Assembly (NCBI GenBank): GCA_965205155.1
Contig: OZ242033.1
Location: forward strand, 84,688-148,687
Length of the DNA: 64,000 bases
Direction: 5' to 3'
DNA from: Candidatus Aldehydirespirator sp.
GTDB taxonomy: Bacteria > Actinomycetota > Acidimicrobiia > Acidimicrobiales > Aldehydirespiratoraceae
The notes under the pieces are model-generated. The model was not told where the DNA came from, ran no database searches, and saw nothing but the letters and a program-made list of their open reading frames with translations. Shown piece by piece: positions 24,370 to 38,406 of this stretch. Made by a program: the position numbers and the translations under genes. Within the stretch, counting starts at the first letter, position 1, and each line of letters opens with the position of its first letter.

Positions 24370-25364
24370 CGGAACCCACCCTTGGGCCGCTGGTCGAAGG
24401 CGACCGCGACAATCAGCAGGATGCCCTCGATGACCATCACCCAGTCGGGGACGACCTCGAGCTGGATCAGGCCGTTGGCCAGCGCGGTCACGAACAGCAC
24501 GCCGATAAGGGTTCCGACGATCGATCCCTTGCCTCCGGTGAGGCTGGCCCCTCCGAGGAACACCGCGGTGGCCACCGCGAACTCGCGGCCGGTGCCGGAG
24601 TTGGGGGCGATGCTGCCCAGCAGCGACGCCAGGACCACCCCGGCCAGCCCGGTGTACAGGCCGGCCACGATGTACATGCCCAGGCGGAACCGGTCCACGT
24701 TCATGGCCGCCTGCCGGGCGGCCTCGGGGTTGCCGCCCACCGCGAAGAGGTGGCGCCCCACCTTGGTGGTGCGCAGCAGCACTATCGACACCACCGCGGT
24801 GAAGACCAGGAAGTACACCGGCACCGGGATGTCGAAGAGCCGCTCCCGGGCGAACCGGAAGCCGTCGTCGCGCACCTGGGTGTGGCGGCCGTCGGTGATG
24901 ACGAAGCCGGCGCCCTGGAGAACGAACAGCATCGCCAGGGTGGCCACCAGCGGGTTGATGCGGAGCTTGGTGATGATGAGGCCGTTGGCGAGGCCGGTCA
25001 CCCCGCCGACGAGGAAGCCGATGGTGAAGGCGAGCACCAGCGGGACCCCGGCCACGAACAGCTTCCCGGAGACCACCCCGACCATCATCATCCCCGACCC
25101 GATCGAGAGGTCCAGCCCGCCCCCGATCAGCACCAGGGTGAAGCCGGCGGCCACGATGAACGTCACCGAGCTGAACTGGACGATGGTCAGCAGGTTGGTG
25201 GTGGTGAAGAAGTAGTCGAGGCGCAGCGTGAGGAACAGCACCAGCAGCCCGAGGGCGACCAGCAGCAGGACGTTCTGGCCGAGCAGGATGCGCCGGAGCC
25301 GGGCCGCAGTCTGCGCGCTGGTCTCCATCGCGCCGCTGCCGACCGGAACCGGGGTGACGGTCAC
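24366..25364 (-). CDS. Sugar ABC transporter permease
   Basis: LDLSIGS, TKVGRHLFAVGGN and AVFLGGASLTGGKG. Confidence 0.88.
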   Translation of the reverse strand: MTVTPVPVGSGAMETSAQTAARLRRILLGQNVLLLVALGLLVLFLTLRLDYFFTTTNLLTIVQFSSVTFIVAAGFTLVLIGGGLDLSIGSGMMMVGVVSGKLFVAGVPLVLAFTIGFLVGGVTGLANGLIITKLRINPLVATLAMLFVLQGAGFVITDGRHTQVRDDGFRFARERLFDIPVPVYFLVFTAVVSIVLLRTTKVGRHLFAVGGNPEAARQAAMNVDRFRLGMYIVAGLYTGLAGVVLASLLGSIAPNSGTGREFAVATAVFLGGASLTGGKGSIVGTLIGVLFVTALANGLIQLEVVPDWVMVIEGILLIVAVAFDQRPKGGFR

Positions 25365-25461
25365 GGCTGGTCCTGGGCTCCTGCGTTCGAGGCCGTGACG
25401 GTCACGGCTGGTCCTGGGCTCCTGCGTTCGAGGCCGTGACGGTCACGGCTGGTCCTGGGCT
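25354..25461. repeat. 41-bp tandem repeat x2.6 spanning the ATPase-stop/permease-start junction
   Basis: gtgacggtcacggctggtcctgggctcctgcgttcgaggcc at 25354 and 25395, partial copy at 25436. Confidence 0.95.
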
Positions 25462-26279
25462 GCTGCCCTGGCGCCGGAGCCGGCCACTATCAGGTTGACG
25501 CACTCCTCCACCGTCGTCGTGGCCGCGTCGAGGACGGCCACCAGCTCGCCGTTCTTCATCACCGCGACCCGGTCGGCCAGGCCGAGCACCTCGGGGATCC
25601 GGTGGCTGATGATCATGATCGACAGCCCGTGGGAGCGCACCTCGCGGATGAGTTCGAGCACGGTGGCGGACTCCACCGCGCCCAGCGCGGCCGAGGGCTC
25701 GTCCATCAGCAGGATCCGGCAGGCGGCCTCGAACGCCACCGCCCGCGAGATGGCCACCATCTGGCGCTGGCCGCCGGAGAGCACGCCCACCGGGAGCTTG
25801 GTGGAGTCGATCTTGATGTTGAGCCGCTCCAGCAGCTCAGCCGCCTCGCGGTGCATGCGGCGCCGCTCCAGGAACCCGAGCAGGCTGGGGAGCCCCTTGG
25901 TGGGTTCCCGGCCGATGAACACGTTGGCGGCCACGTCGAGATTGTCGAACAGGGCCAGGTCCTGGTAGATCATCTCGATCCCGAGTTGGCGGGCGTCCTG
26001 GGCGTTGGTGATCTCGACCGCCTCGCCGGCCACGGCGATGGTTCCCGAGTCGGGCTTGACCGTCCCGGCGATGGTCTTCATCAACGTGGTCTTGCCCGCG
26101 CCGTTGTCGCCGACGATGCCCAGGATCTCGCCCTGGCGCAGGTCCAGGTCGACGCGGTCCAGCGCCTGCACGTGGCCGAACCGGCGGGAGATGCCGCTCA
26201 GCTCGAGGATGGACTGACCGTCGGTTGGCTGACCGTTGGTTGGCTGACCGTTGGTTGGCTTGCCGTCTGTTACTGCCAT
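25443..26279 (-). CDS. Sugar ABC transporter ATP-binding protein
   Basis: GDNGAGKT, LSGGQRQ and LLMDEP. The N-terminus has a 15-bp repeat (PTNGQ). Confidence 0.9.
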   Translation of the reverse strand: MAVTDGKPTNGQPTNGQPTDGQSILELSGISRRFGHVQALDRVDLDLRQGEILGIVGDNGAGKTTLMKTIAGTVKPDSGTIAVAGEAVEITNAQDARQLGIEMIYQDLALFDNLDVAANVFIGREPTKGLPSLLGFLERRRMHREAAELLERLNIKIDSTKLPVGVLSGGQRQMVAISRAVAFEAACRILLMDEPSAALGAVESATVLELIREVRSHGLSIMIISHRIPEVLGLADRVAVMKNGELVAVLDAATTTVEECVNLIVAGSGARAAAQDQP

Positions 26280-26887
26280 GGCGGACTCCTGGGCGGGCCG
26301 GCGGTGATAGCGCCACTGGGCCCGTGCTCGTAGCCCGGGCCATCGGGCGGCGCGAAGTCGAAGTCGAAGACGAATCCGAGCTCGGTGTCGAGGTTGCATC
26401 GGACCACGTCGTCGGAGACGTTGGCGGTGGCCGGGTCGACGCGCTGGGTCACATAGGCGAAGTCGGCGTAATCCCCGACGGGATAGGCGTAGCGCACCCA
26501 CACACCGCGGTGCAGGACCACGCCGGTGCCCCCGGTGAGCAGGAACGCCCGGGCCGCGTCGACGTCGGGGCGGTCCTCGCCGGCGTCGGGCGCGACGATG
26601 AACACCGCGGAGGTCATGCCCAGGGTGATCATGGTGACCGTGCTGCCGGGATGCTTCTGGACGAACTCGCAGCGGTTGCCCCGGTGGTAGTAGCGGACGG
26701 TGCACATGTAGGCCTGCTTGGGAAACTCCAGGGCCTTCTGCACCCACAGGAACCCCAGGTGGCCCGGGGCCCGGTTCAGGCGGGGCGAGTCGGCGGTCTC
26801 GGGGGCTATCACCGCGCCGAAGGGCTCGAACGCGTCCCGGTCGAGGCGCTCCACCGTCAACCGGCGCACGGCGGGGTCCTCGCTCAC
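26270..26887 (-). CDS. Ureidoglycolate lyase (AllA)-like cupin protein
   Basis: LTVERLDRDAFEPFGAVI N-terminus, QKHPGST and GVVLHRGVW. Confidence 0.65.
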   Translation of the reverse strand: MSEDPAVRRLTVERLDRDAFEPFGAVIAPETADSPRLNRAPGHLGFLWVQKALEFPKQAYMCTVRYYHRGNRCEFVQKHPGSTVTMITLGMTSAVFIVAPDAGEDRPDVDAARAFLLTGGTGVVLHRGVWVRYAYPVGDYADFAYVTQRVDPATANVSDDVVRCNLDTELGFVFDFDFAPPDGPGYEHGPSGAITAGPPRSPPWQ

Positions 26888-26897
26888 GTACCCTCGC

Positions 26898-28004
26898 TCA
26901 CGCGTCCTCGGGGTCGAGCGATGGCGCCACCGGCAGGCGCTCAGCGATCGACTGCTTGAGCGCGAACAGGGTGCTCATGCTGCGGAGAATACTTGTGCCG
27001 CTGGCCCAGGGCTGCCGGTCGGTGCCGACGCACTGCAACAGGTCGGCCCGGGTGGCCAGGTAGGACTGGGGCGACAGCGGGTACTGGAGAGGCAGCTCCA
27101 GCGCGCTGCCCCTGGGCTCGTGGGGCCCGTAGCGCAGGGTGGCCCTCAGCATGCGGGAGGGGCCGGGGAGCTCCTGGTCCTGGAGGCCGTCGGCGCTGGC
27201 GTGCTCCCCCACCGCGATGAACTCGAACTGGCGGCGGTGCCGGGTGGCGAAGTCGAAGTGGATGGTGCCGTTGGCTCCACTGGCGAACTCCATCGAGGCC
27301 GACAGCACCGACCCGATGCCGTCCACCCGGCGCGACCAGTTGCCGTAGATCTGCTCGGGCGCCTCGCCGTACCACGACTGGAGCACGTCGACGGCGTGCA
27401 CGCACACATCGTGGACCGCGTCGAAGGCGTTGGTGTGCTGGCGGCCCAGCGCCGAGTGGTAGTTGATGCTGGCCGAGATCATCGGGCCGAGAGCTCCGTG
27501 GTGGATGAGGGCGCGGCACCCGTAGAAGGCGGGGGCGAAGCGGGTGTTGAAGTCGACGCCGAACTTGATGCCGCCGGCCCGGGCCTGCCTGACCATCTCC
27601 AGGCACTGCGGCCAGGTCTCGGCCACCGGCTTGGCGATGAGCACATGGATCCCCCGCCGGGCCGCCTCGGTCACGATCTCGACCCGCAGGGGCGACAGGC
27701 CGACGTCCCAGCGGATGTTGATGTCGATCACGTCGGGCTCGACCGCGTCGAGCATCGACCGGTAGTCGTCGAAGACCTGCTCCACGCCCCACAGCTCGCG
27801 GATGGCCTCCTGCGCGACGGGATCGGGATCCACCGCGGCCACCGGCTGGAGGCCGACGGCGCGATAGGCCGGCATGACGCCGCTGTGCACGATGCGGCCC
27901 GCGCCCACCAGTCCGATGCGGATGTCGGTGGGAATGTCGTCCTTCAGCGGCGGCGGTACCAGATCCAGGGCCAGGATCTCGTTCAGGTCGAGGGGAGCGA
28001 TCAC
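26898..28004 (-). CDS. Gfo/Idh/MocA family oxidoreductase
   Basis: IGLVGAG, HVLIAKP (AKP instead of EKP) and DVCVH. Confidence 0.8.
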   Translation of the reverse strand: MIAPLDLNEILALDLVPPPLKDDIPTDIRIGLVGAGRIVHSGVMPAYRAVGLQPVAAVDPDPVAQEAIRELWGVEQVFDDYRSMLDAVEPDVIDINIRWDVGLSPLRVEIVTEAARRGIHVLIAKPVAETWPQCLEMVRQARAGGIKFGVDFNTRFAPAFYGCRALIHHGALGPMISASINYHSALGRQHTNAFDAVHDVCVHAVDVLQSWYGEAPEQIYGNWSRRVDGIGSVLSASMEFASGANGTIHFDFATRHRRQFEFIAVGEHASADGLQDQELPGPSRMLRATLRYGPHEPRGSALELPLQYPLSPQSYLATRADLLQCVGTDRQPWASGTSILRSMSTLFALKQSIAERLPVAPSLDPEDA

Positions 28005-29026
28005 GAACCGCCCGCCAGCAGCGGTGTCAGGAACCGGCCCGCCTCCCGGACTCCCTCCTCGTACGGCTGGAACGGGTCCTCGTTCTCGATGCACACGTAG
28101 TGGTTGTAGCCCACCTCGGCCAGGGCGTCGATGAAGGCCTGCCAGAACTCGGCGTCGTGGCCGCGGCCGATGGTGCGGTCCCGCCAGGCCCGGTTGGCCG
28201 GGTCGGTGAACGGCCGCTGGTCGAGGACCCCGACGGTGGCCAGCTGGTCGTCGATGAGCTCGCTGTCCTTGAGCTGAACATGGAACACTGCCGACCCGAC
28301 GGCCCTCACCACCGCCACCGGGTCCATGCGCTGCCAGAACATGTGGCTGGGGTCGAGGTTGGCGCCGATGATCGGGCCGATGGCCTCTCTCATCCGCATC
28401 AGGGTGGGCACGTTGTACACCAGGTGCAGCGGGTGGAGCTCGAAGGCGATGCGCTCCACGCCACGGCTACGGGCGTGCTCGGCGATGTCGCTCCACAGCG
28501 CGATGCCCTCGGACCACTGGCGCTCGAGCAGGGCCAGGCTGTCGCCGGTCAGCGGGTAGAAGACCCAGTTGACGGTGGTGGATCCGGGGCCGTCGCCGGT
28601 GGTTCCGGTCATGGTCACGATGTTGGTGACGCCCAGGAGACCGGCCAGCTCGATGGTGTCGCGGATGAGCTGCTGGTGGGCGGCCCCGGTCACCGGGTGC
28701 ATCGACATGCCCGAGCAGTTGAGTGCGGCTATCTCGAGGCCGCGGCTCTCGTACGCCCGCAGGAACTCGGCCCGGGCCTTGGCCGATCCGAGCAGGTAGC
28801 GGGTACCCGACGGCTGGGAGGCCTGGGTGACCTCGATGCCCTTGGCCCCGATCTCGGCCGCGAGGTCGAGACGGGCCTCGAACTCGGCCATGGTGGAGAT
28901 CGGGCTCATCCACGCCGGCGAGCCGTCGCTGGGGGGCCGTTCGGTGTCGGGCTTGCCTTGGGAGGCGGTGAACATCCTCGCCAGCAGCCCCATCTTGGGG
29001 CCGCGCCCGGGCTGGTCTGCCGTCAC
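28001..29026 (-). CDS. Sugar phosphate isomerase/epimerase (IolE/IolH-like TIM barrel)
   Basis: FELHP, NLDPSHMFW, HVQLKD, CIENED. Confidence 0.85.
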   Translation of the reverse strand: MTADQPGRGPKMGLLARMFTASQGKPDTERPPSDGSPAWMSPISTMAEFEARLDLAAEIGAKGIEVTQASQPSGTRYLLGSAKARAEFLRAYESRGLEIAALNCSGMSMHPVTGAAHQQLIRDTIELAGLLGVTNIVTMTGTTGDGPGSTTVNWVFYPLTGDSLALLERQWSEGIALWSDIAEHARSRGVERIAFELHPLHLVYNVPTLMRMREAIGPIIGANLDPSHMFWQRMDPVAVVRAVGSAVFHVQLKDSELIDDQLATVGVLDQRPFTDPANRAWRDRTIGRGHDAEFWQAFIDALAEVGYNHYVCIENEDPFQPYEEGVREAGRFLTPLLAGGS

Positions 29027-35077: not shown

Positions 35078-35690
35078 ATGCGCAGAGTGGACGCCGAAGT
35101 AGTCGACGCCTACCTCGACCCTGATCGCTGCTGCAACCAGGGCAGCATCGTGAAGCTCCAGAACGGCGACCTGCTGCTGGGCTACAACGAGGAGCGGGGC
35201 CCGATGCACGCCGACACCGGCCGGTCGTGCCTGATCAAGTCGTCCGATGGGGGCAGGAGCTGGGATCCGAGCACCCGGGTGGTGGTGGAGGACTACACCG
35301 AGCACACCGGCAACTGGGACTGCGCCTTCGCCCAGATCAGCGACGGCACCATCATCATGCACACCCGCATCTGCGGCTTCATCAACGCCCCCGGAGCCAT
35401 CGCCAACCGCATCGACGAGCAGGCGATGGGCTACGTCCAGGCCCACCAGACCGGCTATGCGGTCTACAAGTCCACCGACGACGGCGACACGTGGAACGGC
35501 CCGATCCCGGTGAGCACCTACCCGATCGCGGACTCGGGCACGGCGGGATGCCTGGCCGGCGGAACCGGATCGGGCCATGTGGTGGAGCTTCCCGACGGGG
35601 GGCTGCACGATCGTGACCGCCTACCACGAGTACACCAAGGACGAGTGGCCCATCCAGTACATGCAGACGGCCCGCTTCCGGCTCGACTGA
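35078..35690 (+). pseudogene. BNR/Asp-box (sialidase-like) beta-propeller protein, internally deleted and frameshifted
   Basis: Asp-boxes SSDGGRSW and STDDGDTW. After ELPDGG at a G6 run (35597-35602) a plausible C-terminus CTIVTAYHEY...FRLD* continues in another frame. Confidence 0.7.
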
Positions 35691-35770
35691 GGTTCTCGCC
35701 CTGTCCTCATCGTCGGAACGGCGCGTGAGCGCGAAACGGGTTGTGAGCGCCCGCGGTGCGGCGTTGCGTT

Positions 35771-35819
35771 TCCCGCTCTTGTTCGCTTCGCTCACGGGCC
35801 GCTCGGGCCACGGCCTCGC
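35771..35819. repeat. Dispersed 49-bp intergenic element, copy 2
   Basis: Matches 20858-20906 with 2 mismatches. Confidence 0.85.
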
Positions 35820-35829
35820 TTGACGCCCC

Positions 35830-36828
35830 GTGAAGTCACGTCGTGATCTGCACCGGTCCGCTCGGCCTCTGGGGCTGCTCGTCGCCGTGGACGCCTTCGG
35901 CGACGGCCACATCCAGGCCCTGTGCGAGGCCGCCGGGGATCGGGCGGTCTGTGACCGGCTCGGCCAGGACGCCCCCGCCGGCGAGTACCGGCGGGCGATG
36001 GCCGTAGCCGAGGTCATGGTCGGCTGGCCCGACCCCGATGTGCTGGCGGCTAGTGCGCTCGAGTTGCTGCTGCTGCCCAGCGCGGGCTACGAGGAGTACC
36101 TGACCCCGGAGTTGGCCGCCAGGGAGGGGCTGGTGGTGTGCAACGCGGGTGGGGCCTACTCCGAGGGGGTGGCCGAGCACTGCGTGGCCATGATGCTGGC
36201 GCTGGTACGCCGCCTGCCCGAATACATCACGGCCATGCCCCGGCGCGGCTGGGACCATCGGCACCTGCACGACCGGTTGTCGGGCTCGACCGCGTGCGTG
36301 ATCGGGCTGGGGACCCTGGGGTCGGCCATTGCCCGGCGGTGCGCGGCGCTGGGCATGCGGGTGGTGGGCGTGCGCCGGCATCCGGACCGGCCCAGCCCGA
36401 ACGTGTCGGAGGTGTTCGGGCCTGAGGCGCTCGCCGCCGCGGTGGCCGGAGCCGACCATGTGGTGGGGGCACTGCCGGGCGGGGCGGCCACCAGAGGGCT
36501 GATCAGCCGGGAGGTGATCGCGGCCATGAAGCCGGGCGCCTATTTCTGCAACGTCGGCCGGGGGCTGTCGGTCGACGAGGAGGCCCTGGTGGAGCGGCTG
36601 GCCGGCGGGAGCCTGGCCGGGGCGGGTCTCGACGTGTTCGCCACCGAGCCGCTGCCGGATGACAGCCCGCTGTGGAGCATGGAGAATGTGATCGTGACCC
36701 CGCACGTGGCCGGCTACACCTGGGACTACCCCGACGAGCTGTGCAAGGTGTTCGCGGTCAACCTGGCCGCCTACGCGGCCGGCGAGCCGCCGCCCAACGT
36801 CATCGACCTGTCGGGGGCGGGATCCTGA
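35830..36828 (+). CDS. D-2-hydroxyacid dehydrogenase
   Basis: GLGTLG, NVGRG, LDVFATEPL and TPHVAG. Confidence 0.9.
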   Translation: MKSRRDLHRSARPLGLLVAVDAFGDGHIQALCEAAGDRAVCDRLGQDAPAGEYRRAMAVAEVMVGWPDPDVLAASALELLLLPSAGYEEYLTPELAAREGLVVCNAGGAYSEGVAEHCVAMMLALVRRLPEYITAMPRRGWDHRHLHDRLSGSTACVIGLGTLGSAIARRCAALGMRVVGVRRHPDRPSPNVSEVFGPEALAAAVAGADHVVGALPGGAATRGLISREVIAAMKPGAYFCNVGRGLSVDEEALVERLAGGSLAGAGLDVFATEPLPDDSPLWSMENVIVTPHVAGYTWDYPDELCKVFAVNLAAYAAGEPPPNVIDLSGAGS

Positions 36829-36898
36829 GGGCGGCGGCGTGAGGGCGGCGGCGTGAGGGCGGTGCCGTGAAGGCGGGATCGTGAGGGGCGTGTCGTGA
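36827..36898 (+). repeat. Five degenerate 14-bp tandem units between the dehydrogenase and MR/MLE genes
   Basis: gagggcggcggcgt x2, gagggcggtgccgt, gaaggcgggatcgt, gaggggcgtgtcgt. Confidence 0.85.
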
Positions 36899-38019
36899 GG
36901 ATCACGGGGATGGTGACCCGGGTGCTGGCGCTGGACGCGCAGCCCTGGTACGGCGACAGCCCCATCCCCGACGACGTGCCCCCCGTCTGGCACTTCCCGC
37001 TCACCTGCGTCTCCACCGATGAGGGCATAGACGGCTACACGATGGGCTACGGCGCCAACGGCGAGGGGATCGGCTCGGCCCACCAGCTCCACGACGTCTA
37101 CCTGCGGGCGATCCTGGGCCGCGACCCGCGGCGCCACGAGGAACTGTGGCACGAGCTCATGAGCCTCAACCGCCACCTGTACCCCATCAGCGACGGCCTG
37201 CTGGGCATGCTCGACGTGGCCTTCTGGGACATCAAGGGCAAGGCCGCCGGCGTGCCCATCGCCGAGCTGTTGGGGATGGTCCGCACCGAGGTTCCCGCCT
37301 ACCGGACCGGTTCGCACTGGAACCTGACCCCCGCCGACACCTTCGCCGAGGCGGCGGCCATGAAGCAGCAGGGCTACCGGGGCTACAAGCTGACCCTGTA
37401 CGACGGCCCGGCCGCCGACATCCCCCGGGCCGAGGCCGCCCGGGAGGCGGTGGGCGACGACTTCCCGCTGATGCTGGACGCGGTGGCCGAGTACAGCTTC
37501 GACCAGGCTCTGGAGGTGGGCGAGGCGCTGGGCCGTCTCGGTTACCGATGGTTCGAGGAGCCCGTCCCGGACCGCGACATCGCCGCGCTGGAGCAGCTGA
37601 CCCGCCGGCTGGAGGTGCCCATCCTGGCCACCGAGACCGTCAGCCTGGGGGAACTGCACCAGTTCCTGGAGCGCCGGGCTATCGACATGGCTCGGGGCGA
37701 CGTGTTCATCAAGGCGGGCATCACCGGCCTGCGCAAGGCGTCGGCCATGTGCGACGAGGCCGGCATGAACCTGGAGATCCACGCCCTGCACTCGTCGCTG
37801 CTCGACATCGCCAACCTGCACGTGGCCTGCTCGGTGAGCAACTGCGAGTTCTTCGAGCTGCACCACCCGATGTTCCGCTTCGCCCTCAAGGGCGCCCCCC
37901 TCGACATCGACGCCAACGGCTGCTTGCACCTGCCCCCCGGACCAGGCCTCGGGGTGGAGCTCGACTGGGACTGGATCGACAACAACACAGTCGTCGAACT
38001 CTCAGGGCTCAAGGTCTAA
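36895..38019 (+). CDS. Mandelate racemase/muconate lactonizing enzyme family (enolase superfamily) protein
   Basis: DVAFWDIKGK, GYKLT, metal ligands MLDA/FEEP/ATE, EIH, HLPPGPGLG. Confidence 0.88.
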   Translation: MRITGMVTRVLALDAQPWYGDSPIPDDVPPVWHFPLTCVSTDEGIDGYTMGYGANGEGIGSAHQLHDVYLRAILGRDPRRHEELWHELMSLNRHLYPISDGLLGMLDVAFWDIKGKAAGVPIAELLGMVRTEVPAYRTGSHWNLTPADTFAEAAAMKQQGYRGYKLTLYDGPAADIPRAEAAREAVGDDFPLMLDAVAEYSFDQALEVGEALGRLGYRWFEEPVPDRDIAALEQLTRRLEVPILATETVSLGELHQFLERRAIDMARGDVFIKAGITGLRKASAMCDEAGMNLEIHALHSSLLDIANLHVACSVSNCEFFELHHPMFRFALKGAPLDIDANGCLHLPPGPGLGVELDWDWIDNNTVVELSGLKV

Positions 38020-38025
38020 CGGCTC

Positions 38026-38406
38026 TCAGCGGTCGGGTCGCTCCAGCCACCATACGAACGACTCGACATCGTCGAGAATGGCGCCGCGCACCGCGAGGAA
38101 CGCGGCGAGCGCATCGGCGAGCACGGGCACACTGTTCTGCGCGGAGCGAGGGAACCGGCGGGCATGGCCAAAAATCAGTCCGGAGTGTCGCTGCCTCGCG
38201 GCCAGGATGTGCCGATGAAGCGCCGCGAAGTGCTTCACATTCTCGGTGACAACCGCTCTGCCTTCGGCTGTCGCAACCCGAAGCAGGTCCTCGTCAGGCA
38301 TCCCGATGAGGTCTGATCGCTCCTTGACGGCGACGGCGTCGTGCCCCCAGTCACGCAGCAGGGCCGCGACCGCGGGAGCGTGCATCTCGTCGAGGAGGAG
38401 CTTCAC
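38026..38406 (-). CDS. DUF5615 PIN-like toxin (VapC45-like)
   Basis: MKLLLDEM and RAVVTENVKHF; directly downstream of the antitoxin gene. Confidence 0.8.
   Translation of the reverse strand: MKLLLDEMHAPAVAALLRDWGHDAVAVKERSDLIGMPDEDLLRVATAEGRAVVTENVKHFAALHRHILAARQRHSGLIFGHARRFPRSAQNSVPVLADALAAFLAVRGAILDDVESFVWWLERPDR

Follow-up and report, generated by a model that had tools for sequence, protein, structure and literature searches.

Gene A and gene B and the array between them

The window considered here, a stretch of 64,000 nucleotides, comes from the 3.87 Mb genome (68.8% GC) of a sponge-associated actinobacterium; many of the related records, classified as Candidatus Aldehydirespirator or Acidimicrobiales, derive from sponge metagenomes. 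Two co-directional genes, a dehydrogenase gene (gene A) and a gene of the MR/MLE family (gene B), are separated in this window by a tandem array of 14-bp units, and the features of the region are collected in Table 1. Every unit of the array opens with TGA (36826, 36840, 36854, 36868, 36882 and 36896), and GTG is found at 36839, 36853, 36867, 36881 and 36895, each time overlapping the next TGA as GTGA. Five GTGA at an exact spacing of 14 nt are the result of duplication and not of chance; in fact, Tandem Repeats Finder (TRF) reports the array with a period of 14, 4.4 copies and 85% matches, and with a period of 28 as well.

Table 1. Features at the A-B junction of the window, followed by those at the corresponding junction of relatives
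Feature	Position	Strand	Basis or remark
Gene A, D-isomer-specific 2-hydroxyacid dehydrogenase, 332 aa	35830..36828	+	Pfam PF02826 (2.7e-51); ORF list; codon-usage score 100 (own gene caller)
Gene A stop TGA, context CTGA	36826-36828	+	
Tandem array, six 14-bp units (TGAGGGCGGCGGCG x2, TGAGGGCGGTGCCG, TGAAGGCGGGATCG, TGAGGGGCGTGTCG, TGAGGATCACGGGG)	36826..36909	+	Sequence; TRF
Further GAGGG/GAAGG motifs	36827-31, 36841-45, 36855-59, 36869-73	+	Duplex energy with 16S tail
Mini-ORF 1, VRAAA*	36839..36856	+	Chain walk; begins 10 nt past gene A stop, ends on GTGA
Mini-ORF 2, VRAVP*	36853..36870	+	Chain walk; GTGA overlap at either end
Mini-ORF 3, VKAGS*	36867..36884	+	Chain walk; final codons are a copy of the gene A C-terminus (..AGS*)
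Mini-ORF 4, VRGVS*	36881..36898	+	Chain walk; TGA overlaps gene B GTG start
Shine-Dalgarno-like GAGGGG	36883..36888	+	6 nt before GTG 36895
Gene B, mandelate racemase / muconate lactonising enzyme (MR/MLE, enolase superfamily), 374 aa, GTG start	36895..38019	+	Pfam PF13378 (3e-48), PF02746; conserved N-terminus
17-nt unit (VNSGAL, MNSEVS)	A-B junction of relatives		
20- and 29-nt units	A-B junction, L024		
32-nt units, 2 to 7 copies, VKISNLSGTAA (B N-terminus fused to A C-terminus)	A-B junction of relatives		
45-nt units, one 36-66-codon ORF closed by 17-nt unit	A-B junction of relatives		
39/40-nt units	A-B junction, L199, L201		
~120-nt homologous insert, one 40- or 44-codon ORF	A-B junction, L017, L032		

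With a unit length of 14, which is 2 mod 3, a frame of five codons begins at each extra GTG and closes on the TGA that overlaps the next GTG. The four mini-ORFs listed in the initial annotation (VRAAA, VRAVP, VKAGS and VRGVS) are correct in coordinates and translation, being reproduced by a chain walk that then enters the 374-codon MR/MLE ORF at 36895. The relay chain proposed there holds for its four GTGA links (mini-ORFs 1-2, 2-3 and 3-4, and mini-ORF 4 to gene B) but not for the link from gene A, where the junction reads CTGA, so that no start lies on the gene A stop and mini-ORF 1 is reached only after a gap of 10 nt. A synonymous TCG-to-TCC change in gene A would account for the loss of this start.

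The start of gene B is the GTG at 36895, as originally annotated: the N-terminus V/L/M-(R/K)-I-T-G is kept in 21 congeners and V/M-(R/K)-I-T in other phyla. The ATG at 36910 was considered as an alternative start and was ruled out by the N-termini of homologues. In fact, those of Opitutales, Flavitalea, Acidobacteria and Chloroflexi begin with MKIT, MKIV or MRIT at the aligned site, in some cases shortly after an in-frame stop, and there is no conservation of Met6; at the related locus L033 gene B starts with ATG and the residue matching Met6 is Leu.

A GAGGG is present in each unit about 8 nt before the next GTG. The duplex energy with the CCUCC tail of 16S rRNA is between -7.3 and -8.6 kcal/mol for all five starts, against a median of -2.8 for random in-gene sites; the motif of gene B itself scores -8.1 kcal/mol and the GGGGG carried by orthologues with a direct overlap -8.6. 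With a Shine-Dalgarno-like motif in every unit, ribosomes could enter the mini-ORFs either de novo or by reinitiation, and gene B may start independently. Throughout the genome, Shine-Dalgarno strength at B starts behind chains is about that at direct-overlap starts, and a site of -6 kcal/mol or stronger precedes about 40% of the former.

No terminator or promoter was found in the array by a promoter/terminator scan of 35500-38300. The sole sigma-70-like match in that interval is a weak one within gene A (36659-36687, ATGACA-17-GAGAAT, 9/12 positions). No Rfam family matched 36000-37600 at E<=1, and the RNA fold of 36790-36940 is unremarkable (z = -0.95). Five GGG(G) runs, 7-15 nt apart, lie on the plus strand at 36826-36890, and a long-loop G-quadruplex is conceivable there.

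The orthologous junction in related genomes

In each unit a gene B head (GTGA[G/A]G) is followed by a gene A tail (GCGGGATC), and unit 4 together with the following TGA repeats the final codons of gene A (GCG GGA TCx TGA). A direct A-B overlap, GTGA or TTGA, is found at 8 of 25 related loci, that is in 7 of 21 species genomes and on 1 of 4 metagenome contigs, and we take it, from the comparison of these sequences, to be the ancestral state of the junction. Units composed of B head and A tail, with a direct overlap as the ancestral state, identify the array as a tandem duplication of a segment spanning that overlap. The unit has no second occurrence in the genome. Exact-protein look-ups of A and B matched no further contigs.

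The 17 other loci carry inserts of 16-277 nt. Over the 18 expanded junctions, this locus included, unit sizes are 14, 15, 17, 20, 29, 32, 39-45 and about 120 nt, and the units are unrelated to each other or vary in size. The chain of NTGA-joined ORFs runs unbroken from the A stop to the B start in 14 of these 18 junctions. Among the remaining four, two have short gaps (this locus and L033), one has an upstream ATG in frame with B (L023) and one lacks a start at the A stop (L021). At the latter (L021:2831-3000) most of the junction is filled by a 15-bp array, CAACACCGCAGCGCC, followed by two 14-bp GTGA/ATGA units that chain into B.

The homologous inserts of L017 and L032 show a net difference of 12 nt. 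Moreover, a unit encoding (M/V)NS(G/E).., either 17 or 20 nt long, stands directly before B in at least 10 species (L016, L018, L022, L024, L027, L028, L029, L198, L199 and L201); it is an old copy of the junction, which has kept NTGA at both ends and has changed in length only by 3 nt.

Junction states are scattered on the tree of the flanking A+B DNA. This locus groups (98% SH-aLRT) with L015, where A and B overlap directly, and with L032, where an insert of 131 nt lies between them; similarly, L019 (direct overlap) pairs with L021 (171-nt insert). To judge from these sequences, the A-B junction is hypervariable and the predicted ribosome path through it is kept.

Periods of junction arrays across the genome

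For the genome-wide analysis, genes were called by codon-usage scoring, the longest ORF being taken as the gene (a crude procedure), and TRF was run over the whole genome. The source genome (G000) is unusually rich in repeats, with 3339 non-overlapping tandem arrays in 3.9 Mb. The test set consists of arrays that duplicate the stop codon of a called gene by at least one period, a criterion used because arrays with a period of 0 mod 3 can otherwise be classed as intragenic; intragenic arrays have a period of 0 mod 3 in 2143 of 2713 cases.

When a co-directional neighbour starts in or near the array (n=48), the period is 0, 1 or 2 mod 3 in 12, 9 and 27 cases, respectively. When an NTGA overlap is found again at the second copy (n=27), the figures are 4, 1 and 22 (P=4e-7 against 1/3). 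In the control set, where the neighbour is convergent or distant (n=27), they are 13, 6 and 8, with no excess of 2 mod 3. The distribution of periods at NTGA junction arrays is therefore strongly non-uniform, in the direction that the initial annotation had suspected from a few cases. Duplications of a start only, compared in order to tell a relay from a harmless uORF, include 10 with a period of 2 mod 3 and 5 of 1 mod 3, in a set contaminated by junction arrays. A chain walk through the 48 junction arrays gave 26 unbroken -4/-1 chains, with up to six mini-ORFs, and 5 more with short gaps, so that the genome has about 31 loci of this type, the present one among them.

The same direction is seen in two congeners, each weak when taken alone: 0/2/5 in G010 (2.0 Mb partial, 56.6% GC, few arrays) and 2/0/3 in G005 (0.8 Mb partial). 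Pooling the source genome with these 2.8 Mb gives 6/3/30. G010 (L058-L157) and G000 are placed in one genus and are 12 points apart in GC (56.6% vs 68.8%); G010 has fewer NTGA junction arrays per Mb.

A uniform expectation of 1/3 is the wrong null for repeat periods at gene junctions, as a consequence of codon-phase microhomology. In a GTGA overlap the frame of gene B trails that of gene A by one base, so that positions of the A tail and of the B head that are 2 mod 3 apart share their codon phase; given a strong third-position GC, short matches able to seed slippage are predicted to be enriched at distances of 2 mod 3, and they are. Of the k-mer matches (k=4-6) that span 172 direct -4 junctions, 44-48% are at distances of 2 mod 3, 28-31% at 0 mod 3 and 21-27% at 1 mod 3; the same measure at 2 mod 3 is 41% in G010 and 45-50% in G005. 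The observation that three of three junction duplications had a length of 2 mod 3, for which a chance of 1/3 per case had been assumed, carries little weight alone once the null is 0.41-0.48, while the genome-wide excess stays significant. Against a null of 0.48, P=4e-4 for 22/27 and 2e-4 for the pooled 30/39, and a chi-square test against the three-class null gives P=0.002 for the genome and 5e-4 for the pooled set. Mutation bias thus explains the mod-2 pattern in part, but not wholly.

The internal copies of an array offer a further comparison, since they are constrained neither by the A stop nor by the B start. In 20 arrays with at least 3 junction copies, the internal TGA positions hold 3 mismatches in 126, when 14.4 are expected from the rest of the units (P about 4e-4, the units being non-independent), and all 3 lie in one mis-registered array. 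In the array studied here, the description of 14-bp units that keep GTGA around a diverged middle is borne out: within the four internal units, 0/12 internal TGA bases are off consensus, vs 10/40 elsewhere. This 25% rate at other positions gives P=0.03 for the single array (rate-based, 0.75^12); tested combinatorially, GTGA invariance at this one locus gives p=0.07.

Origin of the array and its place among known systems

We consider it probable that the array is a local minisatellite, arisen by slippage or unequal-exchange duplication across the ancestral overlap and filtered by selection for a period of 2 mod 3. Slipped-strand mispairing or unequal exchange would have duplicated a 14-bp segment spanning the 4-bp GTGA stop/start overlap. 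Such a duplication across a -4 junction leaves the A and B proteins intact, but it parts the A stop from the B start and adds start codons. If the period were 0 mod 3, an added start would give gene B an N-terminal extension; if it were 1 mod 3, the frame of the added start would cross the gene B start out of frame. The relay class, with a period of 2 mod 3, avoids both and would therefore be tolerated and persist, other periods being purged. The counts of 4/1/22 fit a filter of this kind, in which the relay class is best tolerated. Ribosomes would enter the mini-ORFs by reinitiation or through the Shine-Dalgarno-like GAGGG and would terminate on the next start, and lastly on the start of B. 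We infer from sequence that the mini-ORFs are translated, that ribosomes could be relayed along the chain and that this hand-on may contribute to the translation of B.

Coupling is tight at -4 overlaps (PMC6728339), and in reporter work reinitiation is largely lost over the first 20 nt or so of spacing (PMC10666635), so that a relay or an overlap would matter at such a junction. Counting against the relay, the first link here needs a 10-nt hop and gene B has a good Shine-Dalgarno-like motif of its own; moreover, four or five successive reinitiations are expected to cause strong attenuation. We read the array as a by-product of slippage filtered by selection and not as a purpose-built device, MIRU-like but locus-specific, and as one instance of a clade-wide rule.

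The good motif of gene B leads to another explanation, in which translation of B would begin independently at its own Shine-Dalgarno site, with little or no translation of the mini-ORFs, and the rule would reflect only the avoidance of an upstream frame across the B ribosome-binding site. The GAGGGG before GTG 36895, the GGGGG of the direct-overlap orthologues and the strong sites at about 40% of the chain-preceded B starts speak for it; yet an equally good motif precedes every mini-ORF start, hence those starts should be used too, many other arrays in the genome follow the frame rule without such motifs, and the variant with a start at ATG 36910 is refuted by the homologues. We hold independent translation of B to be unlikely. 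It is distinctly unlikely, in our judgement, that the array is a neutral slippage scar whose mod-2 bias is purely mutational, from codon-phase-matched microhomology of the A tail and B head. The k-mer matches across junctions do favour 2 mod 3 in all three genomes, and at this locus the start at the first junction is lost; nevertheless 22/27 and the pooled 30/39 exceed even the 0.48 null, internal TGAs are better kept than the rest of the units, and homologous inserts differ by indels in multiples of 3.

An adaptive rheostat, that is a reversible contingency locus in which unit copy number is selected to set the B:A translation ratio, would agree with unit numbers ranging from 0 to 7 at one junction over 25 related loci, with the eight or more unit types seen there, with the scattering of these states on the tree and with the loss of ribosomes expected at each reinitiation step. 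We think it very unlikely, given that arrays are found at many unrelated junctions without a functional pattern and that the divergence between the units here speaks against a rapid ongoing turnover. The remaining proposals, which would make the array a structured element of RNA or DNA, a leader peptide with a regulatory role, or an interspersed mobile repeat of a true MIRU or REP family, are scarcely credible. The array is G-rich and its GGG runs could in principle form a long-loop quadruplex, but neither the Rfam scan nor the fold score supports a structured element. A leader peptide or uORF attenuator fails for the same two reasons and because the mini-ORF peptides differ by species; membership of a dispersed-repeat or MIRU family fails as well, the unit being confined to a single locus and the units of the 48 junction arrays being mutually dissimilar, with no cross-locus matches.

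The selection-filtered minisatellite that we favour can be compared with three known systems. MIRUs (Supply et al. 1997; summarised in PMC12548453 and PMC3184786) are tandem units that lie in operon junctions and vary in number; each contains a small ORF with -4 coupling and is co-transcribed with the genes, the 77-bp repeats that separate senX3 from regX3 in Mycobacterium being one example. Their units, of 40-100 bp, belong to one homologous family dispersed over about 40-50 loci and are regarded as mobile, with insertion at start codons. At 9 of 12 typing loci the units measure 53 or 77 bp, both 2 mod 3 (PMC3558156 table 2). Like MIRU and MIRU-VNTR loci, the A-B array lies between co-directional genes of one operon and has a small ORF per unit with 4-nt start/stop overlaps to its neighbours, save for the 10-nt gap after gene A. 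MIRU copy number varies between strains; the comparison of the A-B junction covers species, and between these the junction differs. Unlike MIRUs, its unit measures 14 bp, is built from its own junction (B head and A tail) and is confined to a single locus, and the 48 junction arrays share no sequence. The interspersed-family feature being absent, the array works like a MIRU but is not one.

The ATGA/GTGA overlap is also that of the -4/-1 gene pairs with termination-reinitiation (Huber et al. 2019, PMC6728339; 2023, PMC10666635), and the ancestral junction is such an overlap. The co-directional ORFs with NTGA/TGATG overlap that define these pairs are present in the links 1-2, 2-3, 3-4 and 4-B and are lacking from gene A to mini-ORF 1. 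In contrast to pairs with measured coupling, the overlap is iterated here through four throw-away 5-codon ORFs, the first link has its gap, and coupling is a prediction from sequence. Finally, the in-frame coding minisatellites described as aaTRs in Borgs (PMC9879509) share with these arrays the mutational process and a reading-frame filter, but at a -4 junction the permitted periods are those of 2 mod 3 instead of 0 mod 3, and what results is not a repeat protein but separate ORFs linked in a chain. In the literature searched we found no account of locally generated junction minisatellites that obey a frame rule.

The frame rule is natural-history evidence of selection on the hand-on of ribosomes at stop/start overlaps: related species have repeatedly rebuilt one junction from differing units, and the ORF chain is almost always unbroken. 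Compact operons can in this way gain intergenic DNA and tiny ORFs without loss of expression, and the results suggest that no mobile element is needed for a MIRU-like architecture to form locally. A much wider claim, which we regard as distinctly unlikely, is that coupled junctions keep spawning minisatellites throughout this sponge-associated clade of Acidimicrobiia, perhaps even in high-GC bacteria at large, and that selection for an unbroken ribosome path picks the survivors; copy number might then set, heritably and reversibly, how much downstream protein is made relative to upstream protein, and the process might be a routine source of intergenic spacers and of de novo small ORFs. For annotation, short GTGA-linked ORFs and variable spacers at high-GC operon junctions should be regarded as duplication products.

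Two further arrays are present on the minus strand of the window. At 25354-25466 a 41-bp array (2.8 copies) lies upstream of a minus-strand gene starting at 25364 in a GTGA context, and the ORF of the upstream copy ends on a TGA overlapping that start; the ATPase gene that the initial annotation places upstream of this array was missed by our crude gene caller. At 26876-26910 a 14-bp array (2.4 copies) lies between the minus-strand genes 26898..28094 and 26270..26887, and it contains one 5-codon mini-ORF with GTGA at either end, the chain being unbroken.
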